A stretch of DNA of 64,000 nt from Alphaproteobacteria bacterium (lineage in GTDB: Bacteria > Pseudomonadota > Alphaproteobacteria > Bin95): contig OZ219787.1 of assembly GCA_964291285.2 (NCBI GenBank), positions 96,001 to 160,000 on the forward strand, read 5' to 3'. This document shows, piece by piece, positions 1 to 48,277 of this stretch; the first letter of the stretch is position 1, and every line of letters starts with the position of its first letter. A program made the position numbers and the translations under genes. Below the pieces are notes generated by a model. It worked only from the letters and a program-made list of their open reading frames with translations. It did no database searches and was not told where the DNA came from.

Positions 1-1199
1 ATACGGAGCACCAAGCTCGATTCATCAACCAATCTGTATTCCGGCGGTAAACCGGTGGCCTCCTGGGTTTCCGTGCGGATGATCGACACGCCATCCCCGC
101 GGCGTTCCATCAGGTACCTGCGACGACCCGACCCTGCCACATTACCGACGGGGATGCGCCCGAACACGGATGCGACCACCTCGTTGCGCGTGGCCTGACT
201 GGCCTCCATGCCTTCGATGGTCATGCCGTTCGGAAGCTGGCCGGGCGAATCGATCTCCAGACGGTCCTTGAACATGGATAGCCGGATCCTGCGGGAAGAC
301 ATGGAGTAGTCGCGGTGCGCAACCGCGTTGACCACCGCCTCGAATATGGCAGCTTTGCTGTACTGGAAAACGTCTTCCCGTTCCGGAGTCTTGCGGGCGG
401 AAACACGCATGTTGCGAACGACGAACCGGACCGCGTCCGCGATCTGTGCGGGGAGCGGTCCGGCGATCTCCTGCGCGTCCAACTGGCCCGAGGCACGATC
501 CAGTCCGCGATAATGCGTCGCCACGATGGTCGCTTGCGGCAACCAGTCCTGCGGAGAAGGAGTGCAAAGCAGTATGCCGGCCACGGTGGCCCGATCCACG
601 CCCGCTTCATCCTGCGCCAGCAGGCGAAGATTCAGCAATCCCCGCCGTGGGTCCGCCGCCGCCGCCACGCTGAGCAGCGGCTCCCACAGGCGTTCGCTGA
701 GTGTCTCGAAACCGGTTTCGGGAACGATCTGCTTGTCGAACCACAGGTAGCGGTTCTGCGCACGATTCTGCGCCAACCTCAGACCTTCGTCCCCGAGCAG
801 GCGCCGCTTGGTCGCACCGACCCGGACGAATGCCCGCCCGCTCCGTTCATGCAGGGCTTCGCCGCGTGGGACTGCGACCAGCAGGAATGCTCTGCCATCC
901 AGTTCTCTGTGGTGGACGCCGATGCGCAGCGGCGGCTCGAGGACGTCGGTGCTGACCTCCACAAGCAGGTGGTCCAGTGCCGCCATCCGCTCTCGCGACA
1001 TGCCCTGGATTGTTCCGTCGTCAGACACTCCACAGAGCATTATCCCGCCGTCCGCGTTGCCGAACGCGCCCAGTTCGTCCGCCCAATCGTCTCTGCGTGG
1101 GCTGATCGGTGTGGCGCCACGGAACTCGATCCGCTTGAATTCCCACTGGCTGTCCTCACCCAGGCGGAGTTGGCGGCGGATGTCTTCGTCCCGGATCAT
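1..1199 (-). CDS. Schlafen/AlbA_2-domain protein with C-terminal HATPase-like (RecG-C-like) domain; runs off left edge
   Basis: Manual translation from ATG at 1199 (TAATG overlap with hsdS stop): MIRDEDIRRQLRLGEDSQWEFKR...AFGNADGG...GVSDDG...EAVVNAVAHRDY...DRLEIDSPG. Absent from ORF track because there is no stop in the window. Confidence 0.85.
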   Translation of the reverse strand, partial: MIRDEDIRRQLRLGEDSQWEFKRIEFRGATPISPRRDDWADELGAFGNADGGIMLCGVSDDGTIQGMSRERMAALDHLLVEVSTDVLEPPLRIGVHHRELDGRAFLLVAVPRGEALHERSGRAFVRVGATKRRLLGDEGLRLAQNRAQNRYLWFDKQIVPETGFETLSERLWEPLLSVAAAADPRRGLLNLRLLAQDEAGVDRATVAGILLCTPSPQDWLPQATIVATHYRGLDRASGQLDAQEIAGPLPAQIADAVRFVVRNMRVSARKTPEREDVFQYSKAAIFEAVVNAVAHRDYSMSSRRIRLSMFKDRLEIDSPGQLPNGMTIEGMEASQATRNEVVASVFGRIPVGNVAGSGRRRYLMERRGDGVSIIRTETQEATGLPPEYRLVDESSLVLR

Positions 1200-3773
1200 T
1201 ACCCAACCGCCTTTACAGCACGCTCAGCATCCCGGAGGCGGATTTCGCCGGACATGAGCTTGGGGAGCAGGAGGTCGCGGATAGCGCCAGTGGTCTCGAT
1301 CTGGTGCAGATTGCTCAGGGCGCGTTTCATGATCGGCATCGCCCACAGCTCAAAGGCTTCTGCAACGCTCACCGGTGGCAAGGCTAAATCGACCAGAGCA
1401 AAAGTCTGGCGTGTGATCGTGTCAAAAATCGTGCCGTGCGTCCGGTTCCGCAACTCTTCCACCATCATTCTGACAAGCCAGTATGTGAAGAAGTCACAAT
1501 AGCCGCCGACGCCTCGTATCCCGTAGCAACTCTGATTCATGGCCATCGCCCTGCCGAGACAAGCCAACCTTCCGACAGTGCCCCTTGCGGTAATAACGGT
1601 TGTTCCGGCAGAAAGAACTTTTGCCGCACTGTTTTCAACCCCTGTTTGCGTAATGCTCCTCTCGGTCTCCAAGACGAACATGTCCGAGGAAGATGGCGCA
1701 TCTTTTGCCGTATACCAATAAATTTCGCCATCCCAATAATCTTCGATCGACGTTTTAGGCGTACCTCCACTGTGAATTTCTATTACATCATCCAAAACTG
1801 CTGCCTCCCACCCCTCCGGTATCTCACCGAGTTCGGAGTTGACGAAGCGGTCGGGAAACAGTTCCCACAGTTCGGGGGCGAGGTACGGAGCACGCCCTTC
1901 CATCTTCGCCTTTACCGGCCCGAAATCGACGAACCAGTCCTTGAAGATCGCCCGCGCCATCGCCTCCAGCGTCTCGTTCATGCGCCGGTTCAATGCTATC
2001 TTGTCGTCCAGCGCGCCGAGGATGCCCGCAATCGCCCGTTGCTCGGGGAGAGGGGGCACTGGAACCGGCAGATAACTCAGAGCCTGACCCAAAAAGAGTT
2101 GAGCGGTTTCAAGGGATTGTGATTCAGTTCGGTTATGCATCTGAACGGAGCCACGAATGCCCTGGACCGAAACCGCTCGCCGGGAGTATCGGCGGGACTG
2201 CCCACGATATGCAAGCGATCTGACCGACGCTGAGTGGTCTCTGATCGAGCCCTTCATGCCGTTGCCCTGCCGTATCGGTCGCCCGCGCCAGACCGATCTG
2301 CGCGAGGTCGTAAATGCGGTGCTGTATATGGCCACGACCGGTTGTCAGTGGCGCCAGCTGCCGAAGGACTTTCCGCCGGTCTCGACGGTGCAGCGCTATT
2401 TCTACGAGTGGCGCGACAACAGGCTGTGGCAGACGATCCGGTTCCACCTGGCCGTGCAGGCGCGCGAACGCGAGGGGCGCGAGGCCCAGCCGAGCGCGGG
2501 CGTGATCGACAGCCAGACGGTGAAAACCACGGAGGCAGGCGGGGTTAGCGGCTATGACGCCGGCAAGAAGGTCAAAGGGCGCAAGCGCCACGCTGTCGTC
2601 GACACCATCGGCATGCTCTTCGGCCTCGTCGTACATGCCGCCGACGTTCAGGACCGCGACGGCGCCCCGGCCGTGCTGAAATCCATCCGCCACGCCTGCC
2701 CCTGGCTGCGTCATCTGTTCGCCGATGGCGGATATGCCGGGCCGAAACTGCGCGGCGCCCTCGACAGGATCGGCAAGTGGACGCTCGAAATCGTCAAACG
2801 CTCCGACACCGCCAACGGCTTCGAAGTCCTCCCCGGACGATGGGTCGTCGAACGCACCTTCGCATGGCTCGGGCGCTGCCGCAGGCTGGCAAAAGACTGG
2901 GAAAAATCCATCGCCTCAAGCGAAGCATGGATCAACATCGCCCATATCCGGCTCACAACACGCCGACTCGCAAGGCCTTGAAAAACTTCAGCGAGTTTCG
3001 AGTCAGGCTCTCAGGGAATCGACAGGCACTCGCTGACGCCCGGAAGTGCCGGTCATTTGATCCACGGCGTAGCTTCTCACCCCCTCCCATTGAGTTAGGT
3101 AGTAGGCGTACTCGGAATCCGTGACGCCCGCGCGTCCGCGGATAACGATGAACTCGGTCGAGCCATGCGCGCACTCTGCCGCCCGGTCTGTGCAATAACG
3201 GGCAATCTTGCCATTCTCCAAGCACGGCGTAATGCGCGCCATGAGCGTGTCGCCATCTTGGAAGCGCGACCCGCCGCCGGAATAGGCGCGCCGGTCAATC
3301 GCATGTACGCACCGGGAACCGGCAGTGACCGCAGCCATATCAACGAACGGATACGCCATTCCGCGTTCAAGACGCACTGCCGGGTTGACAACGACTGCTT
3401 CGGTAAACGGCATACGCCGCCACTTTTCATCTACAGAGAGCCTCCTTCGCCTGGTGTCATCAATGTCTGCCAGCACCGCATGGTTCCGCTCAATCTCCCG
3501 ATGAAATCGCTCCGGCAGGCGCGCCCAGTCGCGGGCCTCGACCAAGAAGGGAATGTACGATTCCCGCACCGCCTCCTCGAAGCCCGCCATGTTGCCCACC
3601 GGAATTTCCTTCAATCCCGGCCCGCGCAGCACCAGATCGAGATCGCTGCCGTCATGGCTGCGCCCGTTGACGCGGCTGCCATAGGCCCACACCTCGACAT
3701 CGGGCAAATGCTCCCGCAACAGTGCGTCCAGCGCCTCGCGGTGCTTCGGCTGGAGATGCAGCCGGTCAGTCAT
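1199..3773 (-). pseudogene. hsdS: MNT nucleotidyltransferase fused to type I R-M specificity subunit HsdS, interrupted by IS5
   Basis: N-terminal YGSRVNGRSHDGSDLDL (GSx10DxD), then TRD1. Removing 2080-3010 plus one TCA restores the frame RQRVPVDSLSYLPVPVPPLPEQRAIAGILGALDDKI. TRD2 and RDLLLPKLMSGEI follow. Confidence 0.9.
2080..3010 (+). mobile_element. IS5 family (IS1031 group) element, transposase 2157-2981
   Basis: Transposase motifs YASDLTDAEW, IDSQTVK, RWVVERTFAW; terminal IRs GAGCCTGAC; TCA duplication at 2077-2079 and 3011-3013. Confidence 0.95.
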
Positions 3774-4191
3774 CGGGCGTCGCCTCGATCATGTCCGCCA
3801 GCGCCCGGGCATCGGCGATAAAGTCGGGCAACAGCTTGAGCGTGGCCTCGGCGAAGCCTGCGCCGTAGTCGTGCGCGGTATCGTTGCGGTTGTCGCGATA
3901 GCCGAACCAGCGTTCCGCTGCGTCGGCTTCGATCAGTCCGTGCCGGGCGGCGTGGCGGAACAGGTCCTTGAAGGCAAACCGGTCGGCCTGTCTGTTGCTC
4001 GCGAAGAAAGCGGCAAGCCGCTTGCGCAACAGTTTGCCGCTCTGCTCCAGCACCAGCTCGAACTCCTTCACGCAGGCAGCGCGATAGATGTCATACATGA
4101 AATCGTCCGCCGCGCGATGCTTGTCGATCTCACCGAAAGCTGTCTCCAGCGTTCCGATGCAGCGCCGCAGGAAGGTGGTATCGATGCTCAT
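3766..4191 (-). CDS. HEPN ribonuclease toxin (nucleotidyltransferase substrate-binding, HI0074/HepT-like)
   Basis: RAACVKEFELVLEQ and RNDTAHDY (Rx4HxY); ATGACTGA overlap with the MNT-hsdS start. Confidence 0.88.
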   Translation of the reverse strand: MSIDTTFLRRCIGTLETAFGEIDKHRAADDFMYDIYRAACVKEFELVLEQSGKLLRKRLAAFFASNRQADRFAFKDLFRHAARHGLIEADAAERWFGYRDNRNDTAHDYGAGFAEATLKLLPDFIADARALADMIEATPDD

Positions 4192-4235
4192 GTCCCGCTG
4201 CTCCGTCCCCGGTGCGCAGACCCGTTGCGGCTCAT

Positions 4236-4620
4236 TCATGAGCGGCAGGCCGATTTGTCGATCAATTTCGGCAAGATTATGAGCCTCAGCAACCGTTGTA
4301 TGACACAGGCGTGCGCCATGTTGCCCACCGGAATTTCCTTCAATCCCGGCCCGCGCAGCACCAGATCGAGATCGCTGCCGTCATGGCTGCGCCCGTTGAC
4401 GCGGCTGCCATAGGCCCACACCTCGACATCGGGCAGATGCTCCCGCAACAGTGCCTCAAGCGCCTTGCGGTGCTTCGGCTGGAGATGCAGCCGGTCAGTC
4501 ATCCGGCGCCGCCTCGATCATGTCCGCCAGCGCCCGGGCATCGGCGATAAAGTCGGGCAGCAGCCTCAACGTGGCCTCGGCGAAGCCTTTCCCGTTGTCA
4601 TGGGCGGTATCGTTATCGAC
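4236..4620 (-). pseudogene. Partial duplicate of HEPN 3' end and MNT 5' end
   Basis: About 4315-4615 is nearly identical to about 3585-3885 (NDTAHD..GFAEATL..PDD / MTDRLHLQPKHR..SDLDL); both halves are truncated. Confidence 0.85.
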
Positions 4621-4748
4621 AATCCCTCGCAGGTCATGGCAGGTGTAAGGCCCAGGCTGTCGGGGAACAGCCTTCACCGGAAGGCGCCGCGCGCCTTGGT
4701 GTACCGACATGTTTCCCAACGCATGCAGAGGATGGGAAGAGATCATCG

Positions 4749-6287
<1,539 letters not shown>

Positions 6288-6544
6288 ATAGTCTGAATCC
6301 TTGGCCGCCAACGCGGATACAGTTTGCCGACTCGGCTCTACGAATACCACTGCATACTTGGCCGACACGGTTCGGGCGGGGAAGGATCCCGTAGATCGCG
6401 GTGCCACCATTCCAGCGTCGCCGACGCTGCCCAACAGATCAATATGATAGCGCGTCACGGGGTACAGGATGCGCCGCCCGAGCGACAGGCACTGAGAGCA
6501 CGGTCAAAACCAGTCCAAGGCCGGGCGTCGGGTCGACGCGTCCG

Positions 6545-6708
6545 GGGCGCAGCCGGTTGACATCATCCGCCTGTTGCTGCCCACCGGCTGCCGCAAGGGT
6601 GAGATCGTCTGCCTTCACCGGGAAGAAGTGAAGGGCGACCGGCTCGAACTCGCCGATAGCAAGACCGGGCTGAAAACCGCCCTGCTGAATGCCGAGGGGC
6701 AGACGTAA
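6545..6708 (+). pseudogene. Tyrosine recombinase remnant
   Basis: DIIRLLLPTGCRKGEI...DSKTG then stop; resembles the integrases at 27563 and 28687. Confidence 0.75.
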
Positions 6709-6737
6709 AAGTCTCCGACTGAGCGGAAGACAGCGCT

Positions 6738-7166
6738 CTACTTACGCCAACTCCCTGACCATAGACCACGCCATATTCGTACGATCCGTGATCGAAGAGC
6801 CCGACGGCTCCGTGTTGAGTCCAGCAAACGGGCCCGCTCGCCGTCGACATACTCCGAATGACGACTTGGATCGATCCCCTCCAACCAAATCACCGCGTTA
6901 TCCCGTATCACGTAGTGGCTGCCGCAGCCGGAATTGGCCCACACGGATCCACCCGTAGGACCGTCGAGCGAGACCGACTTCCCATCGAAGTGAACGTGCC
7001 ATCGACTGGGGTGGAGGGACAGCACCGTCAGATCGCCGCATCCGCAAGGGCAGCGCAGGTTGACAGTCCGATGTTTGTGGCTGATCCAAAGCTCGCCGGT
7101 TTTGATTTGGTCGAACTTGGGCAGCACCTCTACGAAGACAGGGCAGAGTTTCACGGGCATTCTCAC
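6738..7166 (-). CDS. DUF6527-like protein (Bub-operon associated)
   Basis: GELWIS...CPCGCG...W...GSV...CGSHYVIR..VIW; overlaps the ThiF gene stop. Confidence 0.8.
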   Translation of the reverse strand: MRMPVKLCPVFVEVLPKFDQIKTGELWISHKHRTVNLRCPCGCGDLTVLSLHPSRWHVHFDGKSVSLDGPTGGSVWANSGCGSHYVIRDNAVIWLEGIDPSRHSEYVDGERARLLDSTRSRRALRSRIVRIWRGLWSGSWRK

Positions 7167-8365
7167 CGCGAGTCATTCGCTCTGACACTGACAATGCGCG
7201 GGGTTTCGAGTCGGAATTTATAGAGGAACGAAGCCGACTCCGACACATACTGCTCCGTGCGGCGCCGCCACTCCATCACGGCGAGCGACGCCGCCAACGC
7301 GTTCACTTCCGGTAACTGGACGTTGTGATAGCCGGGCACACTGCCCTCGATTCTAGCGTTCGGTATGGCCTCCTTCCATGCCTCAGACCCAGCGGCATAG
7401 GCGCTTGTCGTCACGGCGCCTCTAACAGCGCAGTCTTCCAGCGCTATGCTCACGCCCGAATCTATAAACGGAACCCTCGTCTCAGAGAGTGCGCAGTAGA
7501 CGGCATCCTGACGCGACGAATCGCCGTTGGTCAGCTGGTCGATACACACGAATGCATAGTCGATGGGGTGTGCCGACAGAAACTTGCCGAAAATTGACGG
7601 ACTGTCTATCCGGACAGCGTGCGCGTGGATGCCTTCCCGGAGAGGTGTATACTTGGAGAAGTAGTAGTCTACTTTGCGCAAATGTTCCTTTTTGCACAAC
7701 TCAACCTCCTCGGCTGTAGGTGCACCGGGCGCACGCATCAAATTGTGCCAGTTAACGCCGTCTGAATCCAGTAGATGAATTTCCTTCACGGGCGTTTTTG
7801 CGACAAGATCGAGGACGTAGGCGCCTGTTCCGCCCAGACCAATGATCGCAATCCGTTGACTACGGATGCGATCCTGAACCGGCCTCAACGCCGCTCGTGC
7901 CTCGAACGTGTTGGGTATCTTGAAAGGCTCCTGCTTCGCTAGAGAAGCGGTTTCGGAGTAACCGGCCTCCGACACGGCCCCGACGATCTGCTTCGCGTAG
8001 CGGTGAATCAAGTCATCCACCGACCCATCCTCCTCCGGACTGCCTTGCCCACCTTTCTTGATGGAAATGATCGACCAAGTCTTTCCATCGCCGGCGATGT
8101 AGTTCTCGATCGGGGTTCCATCCGCGTGGTACACGCGCCCGTCGAGTTCTTCGTCAGTGATGATCCGCACCGCATGGATCGCGTCGCCTATCTGATCATT
8201 CGGTTTCCCGTTCGCACGGTCGTACGACTTCTCTATAGTGCAAGTGCCAACGCCCCTGTCTGCAAGGAGACAAGGCACCCCCACGGCCCGGACGACATCG
8301 GAATCGACTCTGATGCTAAACCCGGCCTGCTCACCGAACGCTTTGAGGCGATTCCTACGAGACAT
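7163..8365 (-). CDS. ThiF/E1 adenylyltransferase with N-terminal E2-like (DUF6791-like) domain
   Basis: IAIIGLGGTG, LLDSD, HNLMR, YAFVCID, PFIDSG and C-terminal YHNVQLPEVNALAASLAV; ATG overlaps the Ubl end. E2-like call is from position and weak similarity. Confidence 0.85.
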   Translation of the reverse strand: MSRRNRLKAFGEQAGFSIRVDSDVVRAVGVPCLLADRGVGTCTIEKSYDRANGKPNDQIGDAIHAVRIITDEELDGRVYHADGTPIENYIAGDGKTWSIISIKKGGQGSPEEDGSVDDLIHRYAKQIVGAVSEAGYSETASLAKQEPFKIPNTFEARAALRPVQDRIRSQRIAIIGLGGTGAYVLDLVAKTPVKEIHLLDSDGVNWHNLMRAPGAPTAEEVELCKKEHLRKVDYYFSKYTPLREGIHAHAVRIDSPSIFGKFLSAHPIDYAFVCIDQLTNGDSSRQDAVYCALSETRVPFIDSGVSIALEDCAVRGAVTTSAYAAGSEAWKEAIPNARIEGSVPGYHNVQLPEVNALAASLAVMEWRRRTEQYVSESASFLYKFRLETPRIVSVRANDSR

Positions 8366-8603
8366 GCTCGGGGTCGACCGAAAAGCTTGTGCCGTCCTTG
8401 ACTTTAACATCCTTGCCCGGCAAGAGAACACCGTCCTCGTCCTTGAAATCGTCTTTGTAGTCGATGCCGGGTGTACCGATGATGTGCTTGTTCTCTGCCT
8501 TGTGCAGCTTGTTCCAGATCTTTACGACCTCGGCATAGTTAACAATATGGCCGGGGACTTTGTACACTCGACCGCTCACGTAGATCTCCGTGTCGCCATT
8601 CAT
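8355..8603 (-). CDS. Ubiquitin-like (multi-ubiquitin domain) protein, 82 aa, ending DPEHVS
   Basis: IYVSGR...YAEVV...GVLLPGKDVKVKDGTSFSV pattern; GGAG RBS; first gene of the E1 operon. Confidence 0.75.
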   Translation of the reverse strand: MNGDTEIYVSGRVYKVPGHIVNYAEVVKIWNKLHKAENKHIIGTPGIDYKDDFKDEDGVLLPGKDVKVKDGTSFSVDPEHVS

Positions 8604-9018
8604 CGTTTTACTTCTCCGATTGTTGGAGGTTGAAGGGAATTCGAACCACTCGGCCCAATTGTACATCATGGCAACCCGATGTTCGTCGAAGCACGGGTGG
8701 GTCTTGGCGCTCCGCGCTTCCCGGCGCCATAATCTCCGACCTCAATCCGGGCTCGCACGGCATGATCTCCGTGTAACAGCAATGCGCCTCTGCCGTACGA
8801 ACTCCGCCGCCCCTTCGGTCAGATCCAGGGTCCTCCGAAGGCCAACGAATCTCGTCACTGCATCGCCGCCCTCGATACCAGTGTATTGTTGGGCAGCCTG
8901 ATGGCGCGACGGTCCGACCCACCTTGTCACAGGTGCCGCGGTGATCTATCGTGTATGCCCATGCAGTCCACGGGCAGATAGCCTTACGCGGTGCTGACGA
9001 GATCCATTGATGCATGCG

Positions 9019-9050
9019 TCTCACTGAGATTGTTGTCCATGCAGACAACA
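9019..9050. promoter_or_regulatory. Palindromic operator candidates in divergent promoter region
   Basis: TCTCA-C-TGAGA (9019-9029) and TGTTGTC-N6-GACAACA (9031-9050). Confidence 0.5.
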
Positions 9051-9084
9051 TAAGCCACCGCGGCCGCATGTCAAGGGGAGAGCG

Positions 9085-9468
9085 ATGTCGTTCGGCTACA
9101 CGCTGAGGAGGTTCCGGGAAGCCCGTGGTCTGAGCTTACGCGAGTTCGGCAAGCTCTGCGGAATCGACCACGCGTACATCCACCGGCTCGAACGGGAGGA
9201 AAAGACGGCTCCCTCCGAGCAAGTGGTCGACACCTTCGTCCGCACCTTGAAGCTCAACTCTCGAAGGGCGCGCCTGCTGCGCCTGCTGGTCGGGAAGACG
9301 ATCAACCGTACCCTCATCGACGTGTTCATCGAAGACGAGCAGCGACCGCTGGACCTACTAGAGCCTGCTCACCAGATGAGCTTCCGGGGAACGCGCCCTG
9401 AAGCCAAGGACGACTGGCGCCGGCATGTCGATCGTTTGGCTCGCCTGTTCGATGAAGACGACGAATGA
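9085..9468 (+). CDS. XRE-family HTH repressor (CapH-like)
   Basis: LRRFREARGLSLREFGKLCGIDHAYIHRLE; abuts the metallopeptidase gene. Confidence 0.85.
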   Translation: MSFGYTLRRFREARGLSLREFGKLCGIDHAYIHRLEREEKTAPSEQVVDTFVRTLKLNSRRARLLRLLVGKTINRTLIDVFIEDEQRPLDLLEPAHQMSFRGTRPEAKDDWRRHVDRLARLFDEDDE

Positions 9469-10350
9469 ATGGACGAGTTCCCGACGATTCTCAGTGCTCG
9501 CCAGTTCCTTCGGAACGCTGGCAACGACTCTGTGCCCGTCGACGTCGGGCGCTTGGCTGCGGCAGCCAACGCGAAGATCAAGGTCGCTTACGATCTCGCC
9601 GACGATGAATCTGGCCAGACCACCCGGTTCAAAGGAACACACGTCATCATCGTCAACGGCAATCACACGGAGGAGCGGCAGCGCTTCACCGTGCTTCATG
9701 AAATCGCCCACATCGTTCTTGGACTGCCTTCCCAGCACCACGGCTCGACGCTCAAGACCGACGTGCTTCTCCGGTACGGACGGCGACCCGAGGAAGAAGT
9801 GCTTTGTGATGTTTTCGCTGCCGAGTGCCTGCTTCCTTACCACCCGTTTGCCGAACAAGTCTCCGACTCGGAAATCTCCCTGAATGCCGTGAAGTCGCTT
9901 GCCCGAGAATACAAGGCATCATTGACCACGACGGGATCGAGATTCGCTCTGAATGCGAGAGAGCCCTGTGCGTTCGTCCTCAGCGAGAACGGGCGGATCC
10001 GTTATGTGTCCCGGTCGAAATACCTGAATGAGCTGAAGGGATGGATCAATTTCAACGCCTCTGTGCCGCAAGGCAGCGTCGCGCAGCGCCTGATCGAGGG
10101 TGGTCCGAAGATCGAGGATTACGACGAACTTCCAACAGATGTCTGGTTCGACGGAGGCGTCAGGAACCGACCATTGATTGCTGAGGAAGCCATCCTCCTG
10201 CGGGACTGGAATCAATGTCTTTCACTCATCTGGTTTGACGAGCGCCTGACACCAGTCCGGGAGCGCCGGGACGAGGATGAAAAGGTTGAGCCTTTGCTCC
10301 AACAGCTTGACGGTACACTACCGTGGCCATCCAGAAGCCGCCGTGGATAG
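9469..10350 (+). CDS. ImmA/IrrE-family Zn metallopeptidase (CapP-like)
   Basis: RQRFTVLHEIAH (HExxH), EVLCDVFAAECLLP, then HTH and GAF-like C-terminus. Confidence 0.88.
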   Translation: MDEFPTILSARQFLRNAGNDSVPVDVGRLAAAANAKIKVAYDLADDESGQTTRFKGTHVIIVNGNHTEERQRFTVLHEIAHIVLGLPSQHHGSTLKTDVLLRYGRRPEEEVLCDVFAAECLLPYHPFAEQVSDSEISLNAVKSLAREYKASLTTTGSRFALNAREPCAFVLSENGRIRYVSRSKYLNELKGWINFNASVPQGSVAQRLIEGGPKIEDYDELPTDVWFDGGVRNRPLIAEEAILLRDWNQCLSLIWFDERLTPVRERRDEDEKVEPLLQQLDGTLPWPSRSRRG

Positions 10351-10519
10351 GTGCGGCTTCTGGCGACATTTGACGGCGATTCCTGCGTGATTTGACGATA
10401 CTTTTTGGCCATTGCGCTGTCTCTCCGGGGACTGTTGCAGGAGTTGTTCAGCTCTCCTCCGTGACGTTGTGGGCTAGCCAGAGGCCAGCCCAGTGCGAAC
10501 GTAAGCGAACCCTGTTTGT

Positions 10520-10915
10520 CATGCAAAGGCGGTTGGGCGCGGTGGCGAGCTCTTCATGTCGAGTGATCCTCCGCCGAGATGCGCCGGTCTTTCTTCCATC
10601 ACTCTCCGGTCGGCTTTTTCTTGCGTAGCGTAAATTTCATTCAGCCGCCGCTGCCGTTCCAGCAAGCTTCATTCCGCAACGATGACGAAAAGCAGCGAGG
10701 CGATTTCAAGCACGTCTCTCGGCCGGATGCCGTAGCGTTCGGCCACAAAGCGCAGGGCGGACGGAACGTGGCGCGACATCAACCGCTGCATTTAGGGTAA
10801 GGCCCAACGGCGGTCGACTTGCCTCCGGGTCGGGCGGCGTTGTCAGCGTGCCCCACTCGACGACGAGTGCCTTGCCCAAGTGATCTGCCCCCGTCGACTG
10901 GTCCAGGGTGAATAT
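10520..10915 (-). pseudogene. Degraded hypothetical gene
   Basis: Coding-like fragments (SALRFVAERYGIRPRDVLEIASLLFVIVAE*SLLERQRRL) with a stop and a frameshift. Confidence 0.35.
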
Positions 10916-11071: not shown

Positions 11072-13577
11072 CAGACTTCCTGACCTCTGCTAATTTTGTT
11101 TGGCACCGGTGCGCGCGGATTTTGGGGTTATGCCGACCTCGTAGACCATGCGCATACGGTTGCCGGGGAAGTGCGTTTCGGTGGCGTTGAGTTCGGCCAG
11201 AAGAGGCTTGATCTGGCGGTCGCAGGCGTCATTTGCGAGGCCGAGAATGCGGACCCGCAGGACGCCGTTGGCAGGGTCCGGCAGGATGTCGGCATCGGCG
11301 GTGAAGAGTGCCTGAAGCAGTTTCCGGGGGTGGGGCTTGTGGCCCTGCGCCTGCATGACGGGAAGCATCAAGCGGGTTTCAGCGCGGTAGGCGATCATGC
11401 GGATGATGTCGAGTAGGAGGCGCTCGCGTGAGGGCAAGGCATTGAGCTGTCCGGCTTCGTCGAGGTCGCCGGCCCGGCAGTGCGTGGGCACCTCCCTGCG
11501 GCTGGATCTGACAATCTCACGGCCGCCCTCGAGGTCCCTGAGTTCCCTCTTGAGTTCGCCCGTCGGCTGCTTCCTGTGGGCGGCGTCGGCGATGCGGTTG
11601 CGCAGGCGGCCAAGCTGGTGGTCGAGGCGGCGGATTGCCTTGTCGTAGGCCCGCCGCAGCGGGCTGACGACCATGGTATCGGCAGCGAGAGGCTCGATCT
11701 CGTGGGTCGGCAGGGCGTCGAGATTGAACTCGTCGCGCATGTATTTGAAGAAGTTTTCCTGCGACCAGCGCGAGAACAAGGCGCCTGCGGCCTCCGCCAC
11801 CGGCTTGTGCGGATCGGTGGTGACCAGCGGAACCTGACGGCCGTTGTCGAGCAGGCGGCGGATCTGGCGCACCCTGAAGCCGTTCTTCAACGTCACCGGC
11901 TTCTCGGCCAGCAGCATGGTGGCGCTGGCGTTCGCCGCGGGTCCGTGAATGGGAACGATCATCGCACTGAAGTCCTCGGCCGGCCAGTCCCCGCCCCTGA
12001 AGTTCTTGTGCCAGGTCAGGCAGGCAATGCCGCGCCTGGCCAGCCGGCGAAACAGCTCCGGGCTCCAGCCCTCGCGGTCGAAGACCAGTGTGAGCACGGG
12101 CTGGCCGGGCTGCCCGGCGGTCAGGTCCGCTGCCCCGGCGTCGACGATCCCGAGCGCCTGCAACGCCGGCACCACGTCGGATTCGATCGCGGCGACCATC
12201 TTCGGGTCCAGCGGCTTGTGCAGGCACAGCAGGGGCTTGCCGCCCAAGGCGTTGATCCAGTAGCTGGTGCTCGCCGGCAGGCACAGCTTCTCGCGCGAGA
12301 CGAAGTGTTTGGGCAGGCGCCCCTTGCGGCCGGCGTAGACCTTGACGTGCCCGTCAACGGCCAGCGTCGCCCAGAGCTCGGGCTCCTCCTCCTGCCAGCG
12401 TCTCGCAAGAGCGAGCTGCCACGCCTGCACGCTGGCTTCGTCGTTGGCCATGAGCCCGATCTTGCGCCGTAGCGTCTTGACCTCGGGGCAGCGGTCGAGA
12501 CCGAGAACCGCACCCCATTCGCCCGGTGCCTGGTAGCGCAGGCTCTCGGGGTTGCGCACCCGCGCCAGGGTCATGAAGGCCAGGAAGAGCAGGATCGTGG
12601 GCAGGCCGTAGTAGCCCTTCGACAGCAACGGCAGGAGGCCGGTCTCGCAGAGCAGGCCTTCCTTCAGCAGGGCCGGCAGGGCGGCGAGAACGCCGCCAAA
12701 GCGCACGCCGCGGGCGGCGGCGGTGAACTGCGGTTCGACCGGTCCCGCCTGCCCGCAGCTGGCCAACACCCGAGCCCGGACATCGCAAGTCGCGCGCCCC
12801 ATCGGCGCCTGCCGGTCCCGCCGGTCGCGCGCGCTGCGATCCGTCTGCGCCTCCAGCCCCGCTGCCGTCGCCGGCCCGGCGGCACCGGCACTCTCGTCAT
12901 CGACACTGCCCTCGGGCGCCCCACCCGCGTCAGGCGGCACCGCCACTGCCGCGCTGCCGCGCTCCCGACACGCCTCCGCGTTGCCGATCACCCCCTGCCG
13001 CCGCCACTTGTTGACCGACGGCGCTGACACGCCGAGAACTCGGGCCACCGCAGAGCCGCTCAGGCCCCCTTCCAGCAACGCCGTCGCTTTCTCCGCCAGC
13101 TCCGGCGTGAACACCGAAGGTCCCCGACCGCGCCGGGGCTTCAGAAACTCCGCTTCGCCCTCGGCCAGGTAGCGCCGTCGTGCGCGCTGGACCGTTGCAC
13201 GCGAGACACCGAAAGCGTCGGCCAGATCCTGCCGCGAGACCGCGCTGATCGCAGCCAGGCGGCCGATCCGCAACAGCATGGCCGCGCGGTCATCGGCGGC
13301 GTGGCTGTCAAAGGGAACGAGGTTGGAGAAGTAGGTGAAGCTGTCGTCCGAAATCAGAATGGCGAAACAACTGCTGCCGATCGGAACCGCCTCCGGAGGG
13401 CTCAGGGGAAGGGTAATCGACATGGTTGAAATCTCGTATCCAGTGTCAAATTAAAATACCCGAACCTGGACACGGCAGCCAGCGAAAATCAGCCGAAACA
13501 GACGAAAAATGAACCGAACTCAAAAAGTTCCCAGAACGCCGCCCGCAACAAACATCGTCACGAGGTCAGGAAGTCTG
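11072..13577 (-). mobile_element. 2506-bp IS with 777-aa DDE transposase (CDS 11090-13423), family unassigned; copy 1
   Basis: 16-bp IR CAGACTTCCTGACCTC; AGGTT duplication; motifs VDGH, VFDREG, RWSQENFFK; second copy at 34593. Confidence 0.92.
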
Positions 13578-22137: not shown

Positions 22138-22464
22138 GCTTGCCGTGAAAATTGTTGGGGATCGGGCGCACAAAACCCCTCCCCGCCAAAGCACTGCTCC
22201 CGAGGCGTCCGATACTCGCCATCTGCGGCGCCCGTCTTGCGGACCGTGACCGGTAGGCAACCCCGTAAAAGCCCGAAGTCCCGCCCGCGCGGCCGGCACC
22301 TGTTTTCATGATACGGGGTGGCCGACCCGCCCGGCAATGGACGTTTGGGTCGAAGACCCGGCGAACCGGGCATCGGCCCAGGTGCTTGATCAAGCCGGTG
22401 GCGGCGTTATCCTTGCCCCCAAGGTGAATTTTTCGGTGGGGATAGCGCGAGAAGCGGGAAGGCG

Positions 22465-22707
22465 ATGACGCGGCATGTGAAGATCGGGGAGGCCAAGACC
22501 CACCTTTCCGCGCTGCTGGCAGCGGTGGAGGCGGGTGAGGATCTGGTGATCTGCCGCGGCACGACGCCGGTCGCCCATGTGACGCGGATCGCCGTCGAGG
22601 AGGAACACGCCACGCTCAGCGCGACGCTGCGCCGGGAACGCGCGAAGCAGCAGACGGTGACGACCGCGGAGATTCTGGCCTGGCGTCACGAGGGACACGC
22701 GCTCTGA
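22465..22707 (+). CDS. Phd/YefM-family antitoxin
   Basis: VKIGEAKTHLSALLAAVEAGEDLVICRGTTPVA; TGATG overlap with toxin. Confidence 0.9.
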   Translation: MTRHVKIGEAKTHLSALLAAVEAGEDLVICRGTTPVAHVTRIAVEEEHATLSATLRRERAKQQTVTTAEILAWRHEGHAL

Positions 22708-23108
22708 TGGCATTCGTTCCCGACGCTTCGGTCGCCGCGGCCTGGGTTCTGCCGGACGAGAACGCGGCGGCGGCCGACATTGCGCTGGACCGGCTGGGCG
22801 CGGAGACGGCGAAGGTGCCGGGCGTGTTCTGGCACGAGTTGCGTAACCTGCTGCTGAGCGCGGAACGCCGGGGGCGGATCACCGGACGCCACGCCGACGC
22901 TTCCATGGCGCGGCTGCGCCGTCTTCCCATCGTCTGCCCGGGCGAAACCGACGATAGTGCAGTCATGGCGCTGGCGCGCGCTCATCGGTTGAGCGCCTAC
23001 GATGCGAGCTATCTGGCGCTTGCGGTTCGCGAGGGCTATGCGTTGGCGAGCCTCGACCGGCGCCTGAACGAGGCCGCGGCCGCCGAAGGTGTGACGACAT
23101 TCGCCTGA
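22707..23108 (+). CDS. vapC: PIN-domain toxin
   Basis: FVPDASV, ELRN, LSAYDASYLALA, LASLD. Confidence 0.9.
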   Translation: MAFVPDASVAAAWVLPDENAAAADIALDRLGAETAKVPGVFWHELRNLLLSAERRGRITGRHADASMARLRRLPIVCPGETDDSAVMALARAHRLSAYDASYLALAVREGYALASLDRRLNEAAAAEGVTTFA

Positions 23109-27446: not shown

Positions 27447-27562
27447 ACCTGTGGGTGCTAACTATCTGACATAGCGTCGTTTTTTCTCCCGAAATGCAGC
27501 GGTCGGGGAAGCGGGTCGCAAGGGCCCGTTCCCCGGCTGCAACCGGAGCCGGGAGAAACGCA

Positions 27563-28687
27563 ATGGCGAAGACTACCCTCACCGAGGCGCGCGTGAAGGC
27601 GCTCAAGCCCCGCAGGTCCGTCCGCGAGGTCCGCGACGGCAGGCTGAGGGGGTTCGGCGTCCGTGTGTCGCCCTCGGGCCGCAAGCAGTTCTTCATCCAC
27701 TGCCAGCATCGCGGCGCGCGTATCTGGAAGATCGTCGGCGACGCCGGGTCGATGAGCGTCACGGACGCGCGGGCGGCGGCTGCGGAGATGCTTGCCGCCA
27801 TCAGGCGCGGCGGGGAGGCGCCGCCTGCGCCGGACGAGACGCTCTTCGAGGCCGTCGCCGAAACCGTGTTCGAGCGCCATGAGCGCCTCTGGAAAGCCGG
27901 AACGCTCGCTGTCAACCGCAGCTATCTGCGCAACCGGCTTCTGCCGCATTTCGCCGGGCGTCCGGTTGCCGCCATCGACCGGCAGGAGGTAAGGAACTGG
28001 TTCGCCCGCCTGCGCGCGGTGCCGGTGGCGGCGGACCGGTCGATGCCGGTGCTGTCCGTCATCATGAGGGAGGCGGAGGCCATGGGCCTGCGCCCGGAGG
28101 GGTCCAACCCCTGCCGGGGCATCAGGCGCTACCGCCGCAAGGGCCGCGAGCGGTTCCTCTGCGACGAGGAAATCCACCGCCTGTCCGCGCGGCTCAAGGC
28201 GCATGAGGCCCGCTGGCCGCAGCATGTCGCCGTCATTCGCCTGCTGCTGCTGACCGGCTGCCGCAAGGGCGAGATCCTCACCCTGCAATGGTCCGACTGC
28301 CGCGAAGGCCGCCTCTTTCTCCGCGACTCCAAGACGGGGCCCCGGACGGTCTGGCTCTCCGAACCGGCCCGGGCCGTTCTCGACGGCCTTGAGCGGAAAG
28401 GCCGCCATGTGTTCCCGGCCCCGGATAGCGGGCGAGCCCGGAGCGGAAGCTGGCTGGACCACTTCTGGCGCAGGGTCCGCGCCGAGGCGGACCTGGAGGA
28501 CGCCCGCCTTCACGATTTGCGCCATACGCATGCGAGCCTTGCCCTCCGGCAGGGCGAGACCGTGCTCGCCATCGGCCGGCTGCTCGGCCACCGCAGGCCG
28601 GAAACCACGCTGAAATATACCCATGTCGCCGACGCCATGGTGCAGGACGCAGCCGAGACCGTCGGCGCCGCGCTGGAGGCAGACTGA
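27563..28687 (+). CDS. Tyrosine recombinase A (arm-binding type)
   Basis: RDGRLRGFGVRV; TGCRKGE, DSKTG, HDLRH, LGH, TLKY. Confidence 0.93.
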   Translation: MAKTTLTEARVKALKPRRSVREVRDGRLRGFGVRVSPSGRKQFFIHCQHRGARIWKIVGDAGSMSVTDARAAAAEMLAAIRRGGEAPPAPDETLFEAVAETVFERHERLWKAGTLAVNRSYLRNRLLPHFAGRPVAAIDRQEVRNWFARLRAVPVAADRSMPVLSVIMREAEAMGLRPEGSNPCRGIRRYRRKGRERFLCDEEIHRLSARLKAHEARWPQHVAVIRLLLLTGCRKGEILTLQWSDCREGRLFLRDSKTGPRTVWLSEPARAVLDGLERKGRHVFPAPDSGRARSGSWLDHFWRRVRAEADLEDARLHDLRHTHASLALRQGETVLAIGRLLGHRRPETTLKYTHVADAMVQDAAETVGAALEAD

Positions 28688-34592: not shown

Positions 34593-37098
34593 CAGACTTC
34601 CTGACCTCGTGACGATGTTTGTTGCGGGCGGCGTTCTGGGAACTTTTTGAGTTCGGTTCATTTTTCGTCTGTTTCGGCTGATTTTCGCTGGCTGCCGTGT
34701 CCAGGTTCGGGTATTTTAATTTGACACTGGATACGAGATTTCAACCATGTCGATTACCCTTCCCCTGAGCCCTCCGGAGGCGGTTCCGATCGGCAGCAGT
34801 TGTTTCGCCATTCTGATTTCGGACGACAGCTTCACCTACTTCTCCAACCTCGTTCCCTTTGACAGCCACGCCGCCGATGACCGCGCGGCCATGCTGTTGC
34901 GGATCGGCCGCCTGGCTGCGATCAGCGCGGTCTCGCGGCAGGATCTGGCCGACGCTTTCGGTGTCTCGCGTGCAACGGTCCAGCGCGCACGACGGCGCTA
35001 CCTGGCCGAGGGCGAAGCGGAGTTTCTGAAGCCCCGGCGCGGTCGGGGACCTTCGGTGTTCACGCCGGAGCTGGCGGAGAAAGCGACGGCGTTGCTGGAA
35101 GGGGGCCTGAGCGGCTCTGCGGTGGCCCGAGTTCTCGGCGTGTCAGCGCCGTCGGTCAACAAGTGGCGGCGGCAGGGGGTGATCGGCAACGCGGAGGCGT
35201 GTCGGGAGCGCGGCAGCGCGGCAGTGGCGGTGCCGCCTGACGCGGGTGGGGCGCCCGAGGGCAGTGTCGATGACGAGAGTGCCGGTGCCGCCGGGCCGGC
35301 GACGGCAGCGGGGCTGGAGGCGCAGACGGATCGCAGCGCGCGCGACCGGCGGGACCGGCAGGCGCCGATGGGGCGCGCGACTTGCGATGTCCGGGCTCGG
35401 GTGTTGGCCAGCTGCGGGCAGGCGGGACCGGTCGAACCGCAGTTCACCGCCGCCGCCCGCGGCGTGCGCTTTGGCGGCGTTCTCGCCGCCCTGCCGGCCC
35501 TGCTGAAGGAAGGCCTGCTCTGCGAGACCGGCCTCCTGCCGTTGCTGTCGAAGGGCTACTACGGCCTGCCCACGATCCTGCTCTTCCTGGCCTTCATGAC
35601 CCTGGCGCGGGTGCGCAACCCCGAGAGCCTGCGCTACCAGGCACCGGGCGAATGGGGTGCGGTTCTCGGTCTCGACCGCTGCCCCGAGGTCAAGACGCTA
35701 CGGCGCAAGATCGGGCTCATGGCCAACGACGAAGCCAGCGTGCAGGCGTGGCAGCTCGCTCTTGCGAGACGCTGGCAGGAGGAGGAGCCCGAGCTCTGGG
35801 CGACGCTGGCCGTTGACGGGCACGTCAAGGTCTACGCCGGCCGCAAGGGGCGCCTGCCCAAACACTTCGTCTCGCGCGAGAAGCTGTGCCTGCCGGCGAG
35901 CACCAGCTACTGGATCAACGCCTTGGGCGGCAAGCCCCTGCTGTGCCTGCACAAGCCGCTGGACCCGAAGATGGTCGCCGCGATCGAATCCGACGTGGTG
36001 CCGGCGTTGCAGGCGCTCGGGATCGTCGACGCCGGGGCAGCGGACCTGACCGCCGGGCAGCCCGGCCAGCCCGTGCTCACACTGGTCTTCGACCGCGAGG
36101 GCTGGAGCCCGGAGCTGTTTCGCCGGCTGGCCAGGCGCGGCATTGCCTGCCTGACCTGGCACAAGAACTTCAGGGGCGGGGACTGGCCGGCCGAGGACTT
36201 CAGTGCGATGATCGTTCCCATTCACGGACCCGCGGCGAACGCCAGCGCCACCATGCTGCTGGCCGAGAAGCCGGTGACGTTGAAGAACGGCTTCAGGGTG
36301 CGCCAGATCCGCCGCCTGCTCGACAACGGCCGTCAGGTTCCGCTGGTCACCACCGATCCGCACAAGCCGGTGGCGGAGGCCGCAGGCGCCTTGTTCTCGC
36401 GCTGGTCGCAGGAAAACTTCTTCAAATACATGCGCGACGAGTTCAATCTCGACGCCCTGCCGACCCACGAGATCGAGCCTCTCGCTGCCGATACCATGGT
36501 CGTCAGCCCGCTGCGGCGGGCCTACGACAAGGCAATCCGCCGCCTCGACCACCAGCTTGGCCGCCTGCGCAACCGCATCGCCGACGCCGCCCACAGGAAG
36601 CAGCCGACGGGCGAACTCAAGAGGGAACTCAGGGACCTCGAGGGCGGCCGTGAGATTGTCAGATCCAGCCGCAGGGAGGTGCCCACGCACTGCCGGGCCG
36701 GCGACCTCGACGAAGCCGGACAGCTCAATGCCTTGCCCTCACGCGAGCGCCTCCTACTCGACATCATCCGCATGATCGCCTACCGCGCTGAAACCCGCTT
36801 GATGCTTCCCGTCATGCAGGCGCAGGGCCACAAGCCCCACCCACGGAAACTGCTTCAGGCACTCTTCACCGCCGATGCCGACATCCTGCCGGACCCTGCC
36901 AACGGCGTCCTGCGGGTCCGCATTCTCGGCCTCGCAAATGACGCCTGCGACCGCCAGATCAAGCCTCTTCTGGCCGAACTCAACGCCACCGAAACGCACT
37001 TCCCCGGCAACCGTATGCGCATGGTCTACGAGGTCGGCATAACCCCAAAATCCGCGCGCACCGGTGCCAAACAAAATTAGCAGAGGTCAGGAAGTCTG
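34593..37098 (+). mobile_element. 2506-bp IS with 777-aa transposase (CDS 34747-37080), copy 2
   Basis: Same IRs and protein as copy 1; AGGAT duplication. Confidence 0.92.
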
Positions 37099-37352: not shown

Positions 37353-38249
37353 TCAGGCGATGATATCGAAGTCGGACAGGTCAACGTCGGACAACTGCGT
37401 ATCAGCGAGCGTGATGCTCCACGTTGCGTTGTCCCTCGCTTCTTGGTCATTATTGTCTTTGTTAACCTCTGTGGTTTTGTAGATTATTACAGCATCTTCG
37501 TTGCCTATCTCGGTAGAAAAGCGATAGAGGTCGTCAGAATCTTCGACCCCGGAGACTCCCTTGATCTGGATTTCGTCCGAATCGGGATCGTAGTCATAGA
37601 TGCGGTCCTTTCCGCTGTTCCCGATGAAGATGAAGGTATCGTCGCCGGAGCCGCCCACCAAATCGTCGTCGCCGGAGCCGCCTTCCAGCACATCGTCGCC
37701 GGAGCCGCCCACCAAATCGTCGTCGCCAGCGTCGCCTTCCAGTATGTCGTTGCCGTCGTCGCCGTCCAGGGTGTCGTCGCCGTCGCCGCCGTAAAGAGAG
37801 TCCCGGCCCTCGTTGCCCCACATGTCGTCGTCGCCGGCGTCGCCGTAAAGAACGTCCCGGCCCTCGTTGCCCCACATGTCGTCGTCGCCGGCGTCGCCGT
37901 AAAGAACGTCCCGGCCTGTGCCGCCCCACATGCGGTCGTTGCCGTCGCCGCCGCGCAGCGTGTCGTTTCCGGAATCGCCTAACAGGTGGTCGTCGCCGAG
38001 ACCGCCCCACAACCTGTCGTTGCCAGCGTTGCCCAGGATCAGATCCACGCCGTCGCCGCCGTACAGCTTGTCGTGGCCACCCTTGCCGACGATCCGGTCG
38101 TGACCCTCCAAGCCTCGGATCGTGTCGTCGCGGTTGGTTCCCTCCAAGTCCTTTGAGCGGTAGCGCGGTCCGCCATCCTGCGGATAGTGCCAAGGGCCTG
38201 CATAATCATGACCGGGGGTTCCGGTAATGATTTTTCCGGGTCGTGCCAT
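37353..38249 (-). CDS. RTX-type calcium-binding repeat protein
   Basis: Many GGxGxDxLx nonapeptides; acidic C-terminus ending LSDFDIIA, like type I secretion substrates. Confidence 0.9.
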   Translation of the reverse strand: MARPGKIITGTPGHDYAGPWHYPQDGGPRYRSKDLEGTNRDDTIRGLEGHDRIVGKGGHDKLYGGDGVDLILGNAGNDRLWGGLGDDHLLGDSGNDTLRGGDGNDRMWGGTGRDVLYGDAGDDDMWGNEGRDVLYGDAGDDDMWGNEGRDSLYGGDGDDTLDGDDGNDILEGDAGDDDLVGGSGDDVLEGGSGDDDLVGGSGDDTFIFIGNSGKDRIYDYDPDSDEIQIKGVSGVEDSDDLYRFSTEIGNEDAVIIYKTTEVNKDNNDQEARDNATWSITLADTQLSDVDLSDFDIIA

Positions 38250-44629: not shown

Positions 44630-45267
44630 CCGCAACGCATCGCGGGCCGTGTCGTCGCTCCGGCGGCGGCACGGTCCGTTTCCTCTTTCGCACATTGATG
44701 ACGCGGCAACGCCAACCTCGCGCGCTTCGCGCCGCACTCGTGCTCCGGCTTCACCGATCGCGCTTGCGTTCCGCGTCCGCGTCACGCGCCGCTGCACCAT
44801 GCTTCGCCCGGGTGCATCGCCGTCCGCGCCGATCCCGGCGCACCGCCCGCCGCACTTCCGCCGGCGTGACTGTCGACGGCACTGCCGGCGTTGCCGCCCG
44901 TCCGCTCGGCACGGTGCTTCGCACCAGTGCCCGCGCTCGCGCCGGCGAGGCCGTCCGCTCACACGCCGCGGCGGCTCCCCTCCGCCGGGTTCCCCGGCGT
45001 CGATTTCCCCATCGTGAATGCTGCACCGTTCGGCTCTGTCTCTACGGCGGAGCCGCAGATTCAATACACCCGACGCATCCTTGATGCAGGGAGCGAGGCC
45101 CGGCCGGCCTGCATCGGTCGGCAATTTTCCGTTGCGTGACAGACGGTTGGGCCTGGCCCGGCCTCTGACCGCGGTTTCGCGCGCGGGTCGCGTTGTCCGT
45201 TCAGGAGCGCCGTTCCGTTCCCCCGGGACGGACGGCGCCCGAGGGAACAGACAACGGAGACACGCCC

Positions 45268-48270: not shown

Positions 48271-48277
48271 GACCGCC

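Follow-up and report, generated by a model that had tools for sequence, protein, structure and literature searches.

The window analysed here, a 64,000-nucleotide stretch of the genome of an alphaproteobacterium (assembly GCA_964291285.2, contig OZ219787.1, positions 96,001 to 160,000), carries between hsdM (4749-6458) and an insertion sequence (IS, 11090-13423) a compact group of five genes whose arrangement resembles that of a bacterial ubiquitin-like conjugation operon. Three of them lie on the minus strand. The first, bubA (8603..8355, 82 aa), encodes a ubiquitin-like protein (Ubl); it is preceded by GGAG 7 nt upstream of its start and ends in ...DPEHVS and a TAG stop. The second, bubBD (8365..7163, 400 aa), encodes a fusion of ubiquitin-conjugating (E2)-like and ubiquitin-activating (E1)-type parts, and its ATG falls within the last bubA codons to give an 11-nt overlap. 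The third, bubE (7166..6738, 142 aa), encodes a DUF6527 protein from a GTG start overlapping the bubBD stop (GTGA), and the three genes are translationally coupled through these overlaps. Divergent from them, with a promoter region in common, the plus strand carries capH (9085..9468, 127 aa), which encodes a helix-turn-helix (HTH) repressor, directly followed by capP (9469..10350, 293 aa), which encodes an M78 zinc metallopeptidase with the motif HEIAH. No JAB/JAMM peptidase accompanies the bub genes. All five genes had been placed in this way, and the operon judged intact, in a first-pass annotation made from the letters of the window, and we found all five reading frames to be full length and their conserved residues intact.

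The family assignments were in good agreement with this layout. Pfam recognised ThiF (8.7e-13), DUF6527 (3.2e-15), HTH_31 (3.6e-12, as well as HTH_3) and Peptidase_M78 (5.5e-14), and PADLOC matched capP at 7.9e-51 (model positions 9-242 of 242) and capH at 6.7e-12, while PRK06153 and ThiF, the only NCBIfam models returned, stayed below threshold; they covered residues 140-413 of the bubBD open reading frame (ORF) of 422 aa that was submitted. The GC fraction of the operon was 0.579 against 0.659 across the window. A terminator-like stem-loop on the minus strand (6713..6728), 10 nt past the bubE stop, was picked up by a consensus scan that yielded no more such sites than shuffled sequences did, and is thus weak evidence; a search of 6400-10700 against Rfam gave no match at E up to 0.1. 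Two further frames were considered and rejected. A 104-aa extended form of bubA was discarded because 103 of the 120 listed homologues have 82 residues, because the ribosome-binding site precedes the second ATG, and because the extension differs in the related locus L003 mostly through amino-acid replacements. A 153-aa frame at 8608-9069 matched no family, and its insertions and deletions relative to L003 were not multiples of three.

Operons of the 6E/DUF6527 kind have been renamed Bub by Ye, Gong, Chambers and Corbett (10.1101/2024.11.21.623953); they describe Type II as BubA (Ubl), BubBD (E2-E1 fusion) and BubE (DUF6527), as a rule with no JAB peptidase, and the genes stand in this order here. 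A scan of genome collections recovered 36 related loci (L001-L036, 60-99% identity), and the repetition of the three-gene core across them, with an identical bubA/bubBD overlap register in 24, indicated that the arrangement is not random. A canonical Type II set was assembled by searching 201 genomes of the window's class for DUF6791, which gave three loci (3/201 matched), and 401 genomes of its phylum for BubBD, which gave seven (8/401 matched, the window's own genome included). All ten carry bubA, bubBD and bubE in order. One of them, L039, from a genome of the same class, served as the reference for profile comparisons, and all three Bub proteins of the window proved to be profile-homologous to its operon.

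BubA consists of a single beta-grasp domain with the C-terminal tail DPEHVS, its last residue being Ser82. The fold that the first-pass annotation had assumed for this 82-aa protein was recovered by AlphaFold2, whose model (predicted local distance difference test, pLDDT, 86) had the beta-grasp order of secondary structure; its best fold match in the PDB was 9cd2, the multi-ubiquitin protein of Escherichia coli ZDHYS365 (TMq 0.71, E 5.4e-5), followed by other beta-grasp proteins. Whereas phmmer searches with BubA and with BubBD against PDB sequences did not reach the Bub entries, family profiles did, and the BubA profile matched the third domain of 9cd2 (E 1.3e-3) with the tails aligned end to end. 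Pfam Multi_ubiq scored 19.4-20.5 bits, under its cut-off of 24.5. Against the canonical BubA of L039, hhalign gave a probability of 90% (E 1.6e-6) and set the last three residues of both proteins opposite each other.

The C-terminus of BubA, HVS with no terminal Gly, had been noted at the outset as an oddity, together with a Tyr in the YHNVQ stretch of the E1. Both features were read correctly from the sequence, but neither is unusual. Among the 120 homologues listed of 281 BubA matches, 119 end in Ser and 118 in DPEHVS; a C-terminal Ser is also present in 10/10 of the canonical loci, and the biochemically tested BubA of E. coli ZDHYS365 ends in Ser as well (Table S2 of 10.1101/2024.11.21.623953). 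A terminal Ser is thus normal for Type II and neither a defect nor a peculiarity of this locus. The crossover-loop Tyr, named as the E1 catalytic residue in the same paper, is likewise a standard Type II feature. A wider search of 1.84 billion representatives yielded 42 relatives of BubA, 20 of which were retrieved and 16 aligned, with P0244 (tandem), P0246 (long N-terminus), P0248 (aberrant tail) and P0273 (different end) set aside. Within this alignment the last residue was Ser in seven, Ala in six and Gly in three, while Pro45 and the His two residues before the C-terminus were invariant (H-x-S/A/G). Among the relatives, P0244 is a tandem duplication of 166 aa with two units ending in SPDQIG... 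and SPEHIA, and some others (the P0012-P0018 group) carry N-terminal extensions of 40-60 aa, reminiscent of the multi-domain Ubls described for Bub.

The E1 part of BubBD (residues about 160-400) is a ThiF-type adenylation domain with the glycine-rich motif GLGGTG at 176-181. Its putative adenylation residue R211 (7733-7735, minus strand) and the crossover-loop Y346 (7328-7330, minus strand), which is the Tyr of YHNVQ, were invariant in 22/22 BubBDs of the clade formed by the window and its relatives. The clade profile matched Citrobacter BubCD (E 1e-5) and placed R211 opposite BubCD R227 in a chain with two extra residues; R211 also aligned to the canonical FRAPGAP motif. The corresponding Arg is required for adenylation in E. 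coli BubBD (R219, with R227 as its Citrobacter counterpart), and on the Bub E1 the Ubl is bound as an oxyester by a tyrosine of the crossover loop (Y342 in E. coli; 10.1101/2024.11.21.623953). The whole of BubBD was related to its L039 counterpart by hhalign (probability 99.9, E 2e-31), and its E1 part by BLASTP (32% identity, 7e-38). In the AlphaFold2 model of BubBD, Foldseek ranked Citrobacter BubCD 9eav first (4e-9), and VIA-align returned E1 enzymes at Z 11-13, with the Cap2 chain 7to3_A aligned over model residues 1-356. In the clade alignment, no Cys was found within the crossover-loop stretch at residues 325-350.

BubE carries four putative zinc-binding cysteines (C39/C41/C43/C81), a putative catalytic dyad of S74 and H84, and a basic, hydrophobic C-terminal tail. 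These six residues were invariant in 23/23 sequences, and BubE was related to the L039 protein by hhalign (probability 98%, E 2.1e-13). The residue pattern equals that of C57/C59/C61/C99, S92 and H102 named for Citrobacter BubE, and Bub BubE proteins are reported to be Ser/His proteases with a Cys4 zinc site that remove conjugates (10.1101/2024.11.21.623953).

The regulatory pair likewise agreed with the CapH/CapP identity proposed from the first inspection. Besides its PADLOC match, CapP gave Thauera CapP (7t5t) as its best PDB sequence match (5.5e-9, residues 68-266 against 89-288), in which H77, E78, H81 and E110 stand opposite the active-site residues of the Thauera enzyme; the alignment reaches residue 266 of 293, and CapP is predicted to bear a C-terminal sensor (GAF) part. 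T94 falls opposite the switch Cys of Thauera CapP, indicating a CapP without the cysteine switch, which is present in 134 of 408 CapPs (about one third) of cyclic-oligonucleotide-based antiphage signalling systems (CBASS; Lau et al., 10.1101/2022.04.27.489752). CapH matched the HTH of E. coli CapH (7t5u, 1.4e-3). It also aligned over its full length to Deinococcus DdrO (6jq1), with S-F100/R101-G opposite E-L/R-G, and DdrO is cleaved by IrrE between this Leu and Arg. This alignment, together with the reported cut of E. coli CapH between F82 and R83, makes F100/R101 the candidate cleavage point; according to the same report, CapH represses from the shared promoter region and is cleaved by CapP activated by single-stranded DNA (10.1101/2022.04.27.489752).

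The 480-nt intergenic region contained five promoter-like sites against 1.2 expected from shuffled sequences. Toward bubA, on the minus strand, a sigma-70-like promoter was found at 9047..9074 (TTGACA, 16 nt, TATGTT; 10/12 consensus matches), and its -35 hexamer is kept in L001 and L003. The perfect 6-6-6 palindrome GTTGTC-N6-GACAAC at 9032..9049 overlaps its -10 and the likely start site, and is a candidate CapH operator; the window has a single copy where 0.09 are expected, and its arms are kept in L001 and L003 while the spacer varies. On the plus strand, the consensus scan gave a promoter-like site toward capH at 8924-8952, and just downstream of its -10 lies a related 16-mer (8956..8971), a candidate operator for capH autoregulation. 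The count of the 16-mer pattern is circular, since the pattern was built from the sites at 9032-9049 and 8956-8971 themselves. The arrangement is compatible with repression of both divergent promoters by CapH. Compared with L003, the sequence at 8604-9046 is well conserved at both ends and variable in the middle, with a 53-nt insertion or deletion, and most of the related loci have their HTH gene far nearer to bubA than the window does, where the stretch from the candidate promoter to bubA is unusually long.

Considering all of these features, we regard it as quite probable that the locus is a complete Type II Bub-like (6E.2/DUF6527) conjugation operon of a diverged clade under a CapH/CapP switch, as far as sequence and predicted folds can tell. 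The match to Bub-type operons drawn at first sight is upheld by family searches, canonical-locus profiles, predicted folds and the published description alike (10.1101/2024.11.21.623953). The kind of operon has already been described; what is new is the clade, with its remodelled E2-like active-site region and its minimal, H-x-S-tailed Ubl. The suggestion of a diverged system held as such, but the divergence lies elsewhere than in the features then named: as aligned here, it sits in the E2-like domain of BubBD, which had not been pointed to.

This N-terminal domain (residues about 1-140; 7946-8365, minus strand) was modelled confidently by AlphaFold2 as helix, beta meander and helix. It shares with the canonical domains the anchors G-F/Y, V-P, K/R-P, His64 and A-D-G-T-P, and a feature-based cluster look-up put DUF6791 clusters first with a score of just 0.78, to be taken as a lead and not as evidence. 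A profile of the domain found no match among PDB sequences, and the fold-match lists obtained for BubBD with VIA and Foldseek were filled by E1 and Rossmann folds and hence barely probe it. Within the F-S-x-K-P motif of the ten canonical domains, S105, K107 and P108 are invariant, and in Bub the E2 carries the Ubl as a serine oxyester, on S106 in E. coli (10.1101/2024.11.21.623953). In the clade, W97, I100, S101, H64, D75, Y79, C32 and C42 are invariant over 22 sequences; S101 (8063-8065, minus strand) lies six residues upstream of Q107, and residue 109 is Ser in only 14/22 members. The invariance of the polar residues S101, H64, D75 and Y79 suggests a live active site.

Several observations weigh against the assignment to Type II Bub. 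With an E threshold of 10, Pfam detected neither DUF6791 nor any E2 family in the N-terminal domain, be it that of the window or those of 21 clade members, and a DUF6791 search of the window's own genome found no match. Aligned alone with the canonical domain by hhalign, it gave weak P values of 0.049 with three canonical sequences and 0.0014 with ten, over residues 3-96 only, ending before the active-site segment. Full-length hhalign and L-INS-i MAFFT set canonical S105/K107/P108 opposite Q107/S109/P110, a segment in which the alignment is of low confidence; with S-x-K-P aligned to Q107-G-S-P110, the canonical E2 serine position has no serine here. In the E1 part, the match of Y346 to the canonical Tyr is off by one residue, hhalign and BLASTP erring in opposite directions because Y346 stands two residues ahead of the conserved N-V-Q-L and the canonical Tyr three residues ahead of N-I-Q. 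The BubBD model (mean pLDDT 66.5) is poor beyond residue 300, with 80-93 in the N-terminal domain, moderate values in the Rossmann core and <50 at residues 304-400. The promoter and operator calls rest on consensus agreement only, and a transcript from the promoter at 9047-9074 implies a 5' leader of about 440 nt (8604-9046), for which Rfam gave nothing and whose predicted folding is only marginally better than that of shuffled sequences (z -1.9), a weak signal. The bubBD frame is full length in 27 of the 36 related loci but broken or fragmentary in nine (L004, L008, L022, L024 and L032-L036), so the system is often lost. Finally, the authors of the Bub report state that none of their Bub operons protected E. 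coli from phage (10.1101/2024.11.21.623953).

Our best guess for the E2 nucleophile of the clade is Ser101, most likely, in place of the canonical FSxKP serine. A bolder proposal, which we put forward tentatively and consider on balance doubtful, is that the clade may represent a third Bub form, in which the FSxKP nucleophile has been lost and either shifted to Ser101, together with His64 and Asp75, or abandoned with E2 chemistry altogether, in which the invariant His of BubA may act in catalysis or in recognition by BubE, and which has recently spread horizontally over at least six phyla while swapping its switch.

Less likely again is that the N-terminal domain is a pseudo-E2, serving only as a scaffold or for target binding, so that BubA would pass straight from the Tyr346 oxyester or the adenylate to the target. 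The replacement of the canonical serine and lysine by Q107 and a variable residue, the missing DUF6791 match and the end of the domain alignment at residue 96 would all fit such a domain, yet the clade has kept the invariant polar S101, H64, D75 and Y79, the replacement is read from a low-confidence segment, and E. coli BubBD requires its E2 serine (10.1101/2024.11.21.623953).

The related loci belong to Pseudomonadota (Alpha and Gamma), Acidobacteriota, Chloroflexota, Gemmatimonadota, Binatota and Latescibacterota, with one record labelled Saccharibacteria, so that metagenome-assembled genomes from six phyla or more carry the cassette. For the host genus Palauibacter, species names hint at marine invertebrate hosts. 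In a quick maximum-likelihood tree of BubBD, built from 22 full-length rows plus the window with the broken loci and five loci whose match starts at residue 4-7 omitted, the clade was shallow (median end branch 0.17) and was joined by a canonical BubBD from the window's class through a branch of about 10 changes per column. In this tree the phylum labels clustered, with six changes against a possible minimum of five, which fits a few cross-phylum transfers followed by spread inside phyla, the tree being no proof of it. Among the related loci, the CapH/CapP type of the window occurs in L001-L003 only, and an HTH and M78 peptidase pair stands upstream of bubA in 21/32 loci (L001-L032), as counted from those 56 of 99 listed upstream ORFs that lie closest to bubA. 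In most of these 21 pairs the peptidase is shorter, at about 195 aa; there are also two fused pairs and a single co-oriented one. The bub cargo has retained this kind of switch while swapping the actual regulator genes. In Table S1 of 10.1101/2024.11.21.623953, in which many rows are 'unclassified' and give accessions only, the stems Chloroflex, Dehalococc, Gemmatimon, Acidobacter, Pseudohongiella and Poribacteria were missing; the clade is probably absent from the published catalogue of 544 operons, an absence that cannot be proved.

It seems improbable to us that the operon is only carried along on a decaying mobile island, inactive and idle in its host. Its surroundings are riddled with IS elements, its GC content is lower than that of the window, and bubBD is disrupted in a quarter (9/36) of its relatives. 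Against this, its own five frames and their conserved residues are intact, and intact copies 99% identical to it exist in two other genomes (L001 and L002).

A reversion of the clade to thioester chemistry in the E2-like domain, through C32 or C42, is more improbable still. Both cysteines are invariant in 22/22 clade members, where canonical proteins carry Tyr and Leu or other residues, but they fall in predicted early beta strands (24-33 and 39-48). In E2 enzymes (UBC fold), the nucleophile is located far from these strands, and the E1 of the clade retains its Tyr with no loop Cys. The poorest candidate is a non-tagging pathway of the ThiF/MoeB sulfur-carrier or MccB/PaaA peptide-modifying type with the small protein as carrier or precursor, since the E1 part does match ThiF, MoeB, MccB and PaaA in sequence and fold searches but its best matches are BubCD and canonical BubBD, the window family scans found no biosynthetic genes nearby, the DUF6527 partner and CapH/CapP are Bub hallmarks, and the beta-grasp protein is closest to BubA.

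For the Type II Bub-like operon under CapH/CapP control that we favour, a working can be proposed from homology and residue conservation, with its chemical steps inferred from published Bub work. At rest, CapH dimers would occupy the palindrome over the bub -10 and the related site near the capH promoter and keep both transcripts low. Single-stranded DNA arising from damage or infection would activate CapP, CapH would be cut, probably between F100 and R101, and transcription would rise. The E1 domain of BubBD would then adenylate the C-terminal Ser82 of BubA, the crossover-loop Tyr346 would accept BubA as an oxyester, and BubA would be handed to a hydroxyl nucleophile of the E2-like domain, most likely Ser101, and from there to a lysine of a target protein. 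BubE, as a zinc-stabilised Ser74/His84 protease, would strip BubA off again and so limit the reaction. The most likely role would be immunity against phages or mobile elements, or a response to DNA-damage stress; both defence and induction by damage are inferred here, as defence is across the Bub family.

Among ubiquitin-like cascades, only the Bub systems have been reported to work through oxygen esters. With the smallest Ubl, a remodelled E2 site and a wide horizontal spread, this compact clade offers a simple natural variant for probing which residues the oxyester relay needs, and it may reveal, via CapH/CapP, which cue switches the pathway on. For annotation, it is of note that the current Pfam models DUF6791 and Multi_ubiq miss this clade.

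The early remark that other defence genes of the window had been struck by IS elements was broadly right. A Type I restriction-modification locus (1199-6458) has an hsdM that looks intact and an hsdS in two pieces (3003-3773 and 1199-2335) split by an IS4/IS5-type DDE transposase gene (2157-2981), together with an 88-aa nucleotidyltransferase-domain ORF at 4236-4502; family scans found no hsdR next to it. In the region 57246-62222, the gene of an HKD(PLD)+Snf2 helicase protein of a candidate defence family (57246-59177) abuts a gene for a 996-aa DDE transposase, and since PADLOC matched only model positions 100-385 of 948, the protein is probably truncated by the IS. Two inverted IS copies (11090-13423 and 34747-37080), each encoding a 777-aa Transposase_29 protein, are identical at 2333/2334 bases, with identity continuing 19 and 155 nt past the ORF; bracketing about 21 kb, they could form a composite element. 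Two tyrosine-integrase and two NikA-like mobilisation genes (27494-28687, 45018-47990 and 47941-48661) join at least nine genes for transposases, giving the entire 64 kb the appearance of a mobile-element mosaic. Within 22390-23108, a PIN-domain protein (22707-23108) beside a small divergent ORF is possibly part of a toxin-antitoxin pair, and an RTX calcium-binding repeat protein is encoded at 37353-38249.

Compared with known systems, the operon is closest to the Type II Bub (6E.2) operon of E. coli ZDHYS365, with which it shares the gene order, the lack of a JAB peptidase, the C-terminal Ser of the Ubl, the adenylation Arg, the crossover-loop Tyr without Cys, the Cys4 and Ser/His residues and the hydrophobic C-terminal tail of BubE, and the frequent company of CapH and CapP, which adjoin 168/544 Bub operons (10.1101/2024.11.21.623953). 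It differs in that the three-domain BubA of E. coli terminates in TDKS, whereas BubA here is one beta-grasp of 82 aa with an invariant His; in that its E1 part is only 32% identical to the canonical one and its N-terminal domain is not recognised as DUF6791; in that the clade's own invariant W97/I100/S101 replaces FSxKP; and in an overlap of bubA and bubBD of 11 nt in place of 26. With Type I Bub (Citrobacter BubAB, BubCD and BubE; PDB 9EA4-9EAV), it has in common the E1 family, the catalytic logic of Arg and Tyr, and in BubE an identical Ser-to-Cys-to-His spacing (S-V-W...C..H), but it possesses neither the Ubl-E2 fusion, nor the JAB peptidase-E1 fusion, nor a Ubl ending in Gly after processing. 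The E2-E1 fusion of BubBD recalls Cap2, and Type II CBASS Cap2/Cap3 and Bil, which lie in defence islands, likewise pair conjugation of the E1/E2 type with a deconjugating peptidase of their own; those systems, however, use cysteine thioesters and JAB peptidases, and Cap2 conjugates a CD-NTase and not a free Ubl. The switch resembles the CapH/CapP pairs of CBASS (E. coli MS115-1 and Thauera sp. K11), which are also divergent HTH and M78 genes sharing the promoter region of their cargo, except that the cargo here is Bub, that CapP lacks the cysteine-switch loop as two thirds of CapPs do, and that the candidate operator overlaps the -10 where the E. coli CapH site lies upstream of the -35. The relationship extends to DdrO/IrrE of Deinococcus, with DdrO alignable to the full length of CapH and an aromatic-Arg pair standing at the cleavage position in CapH.

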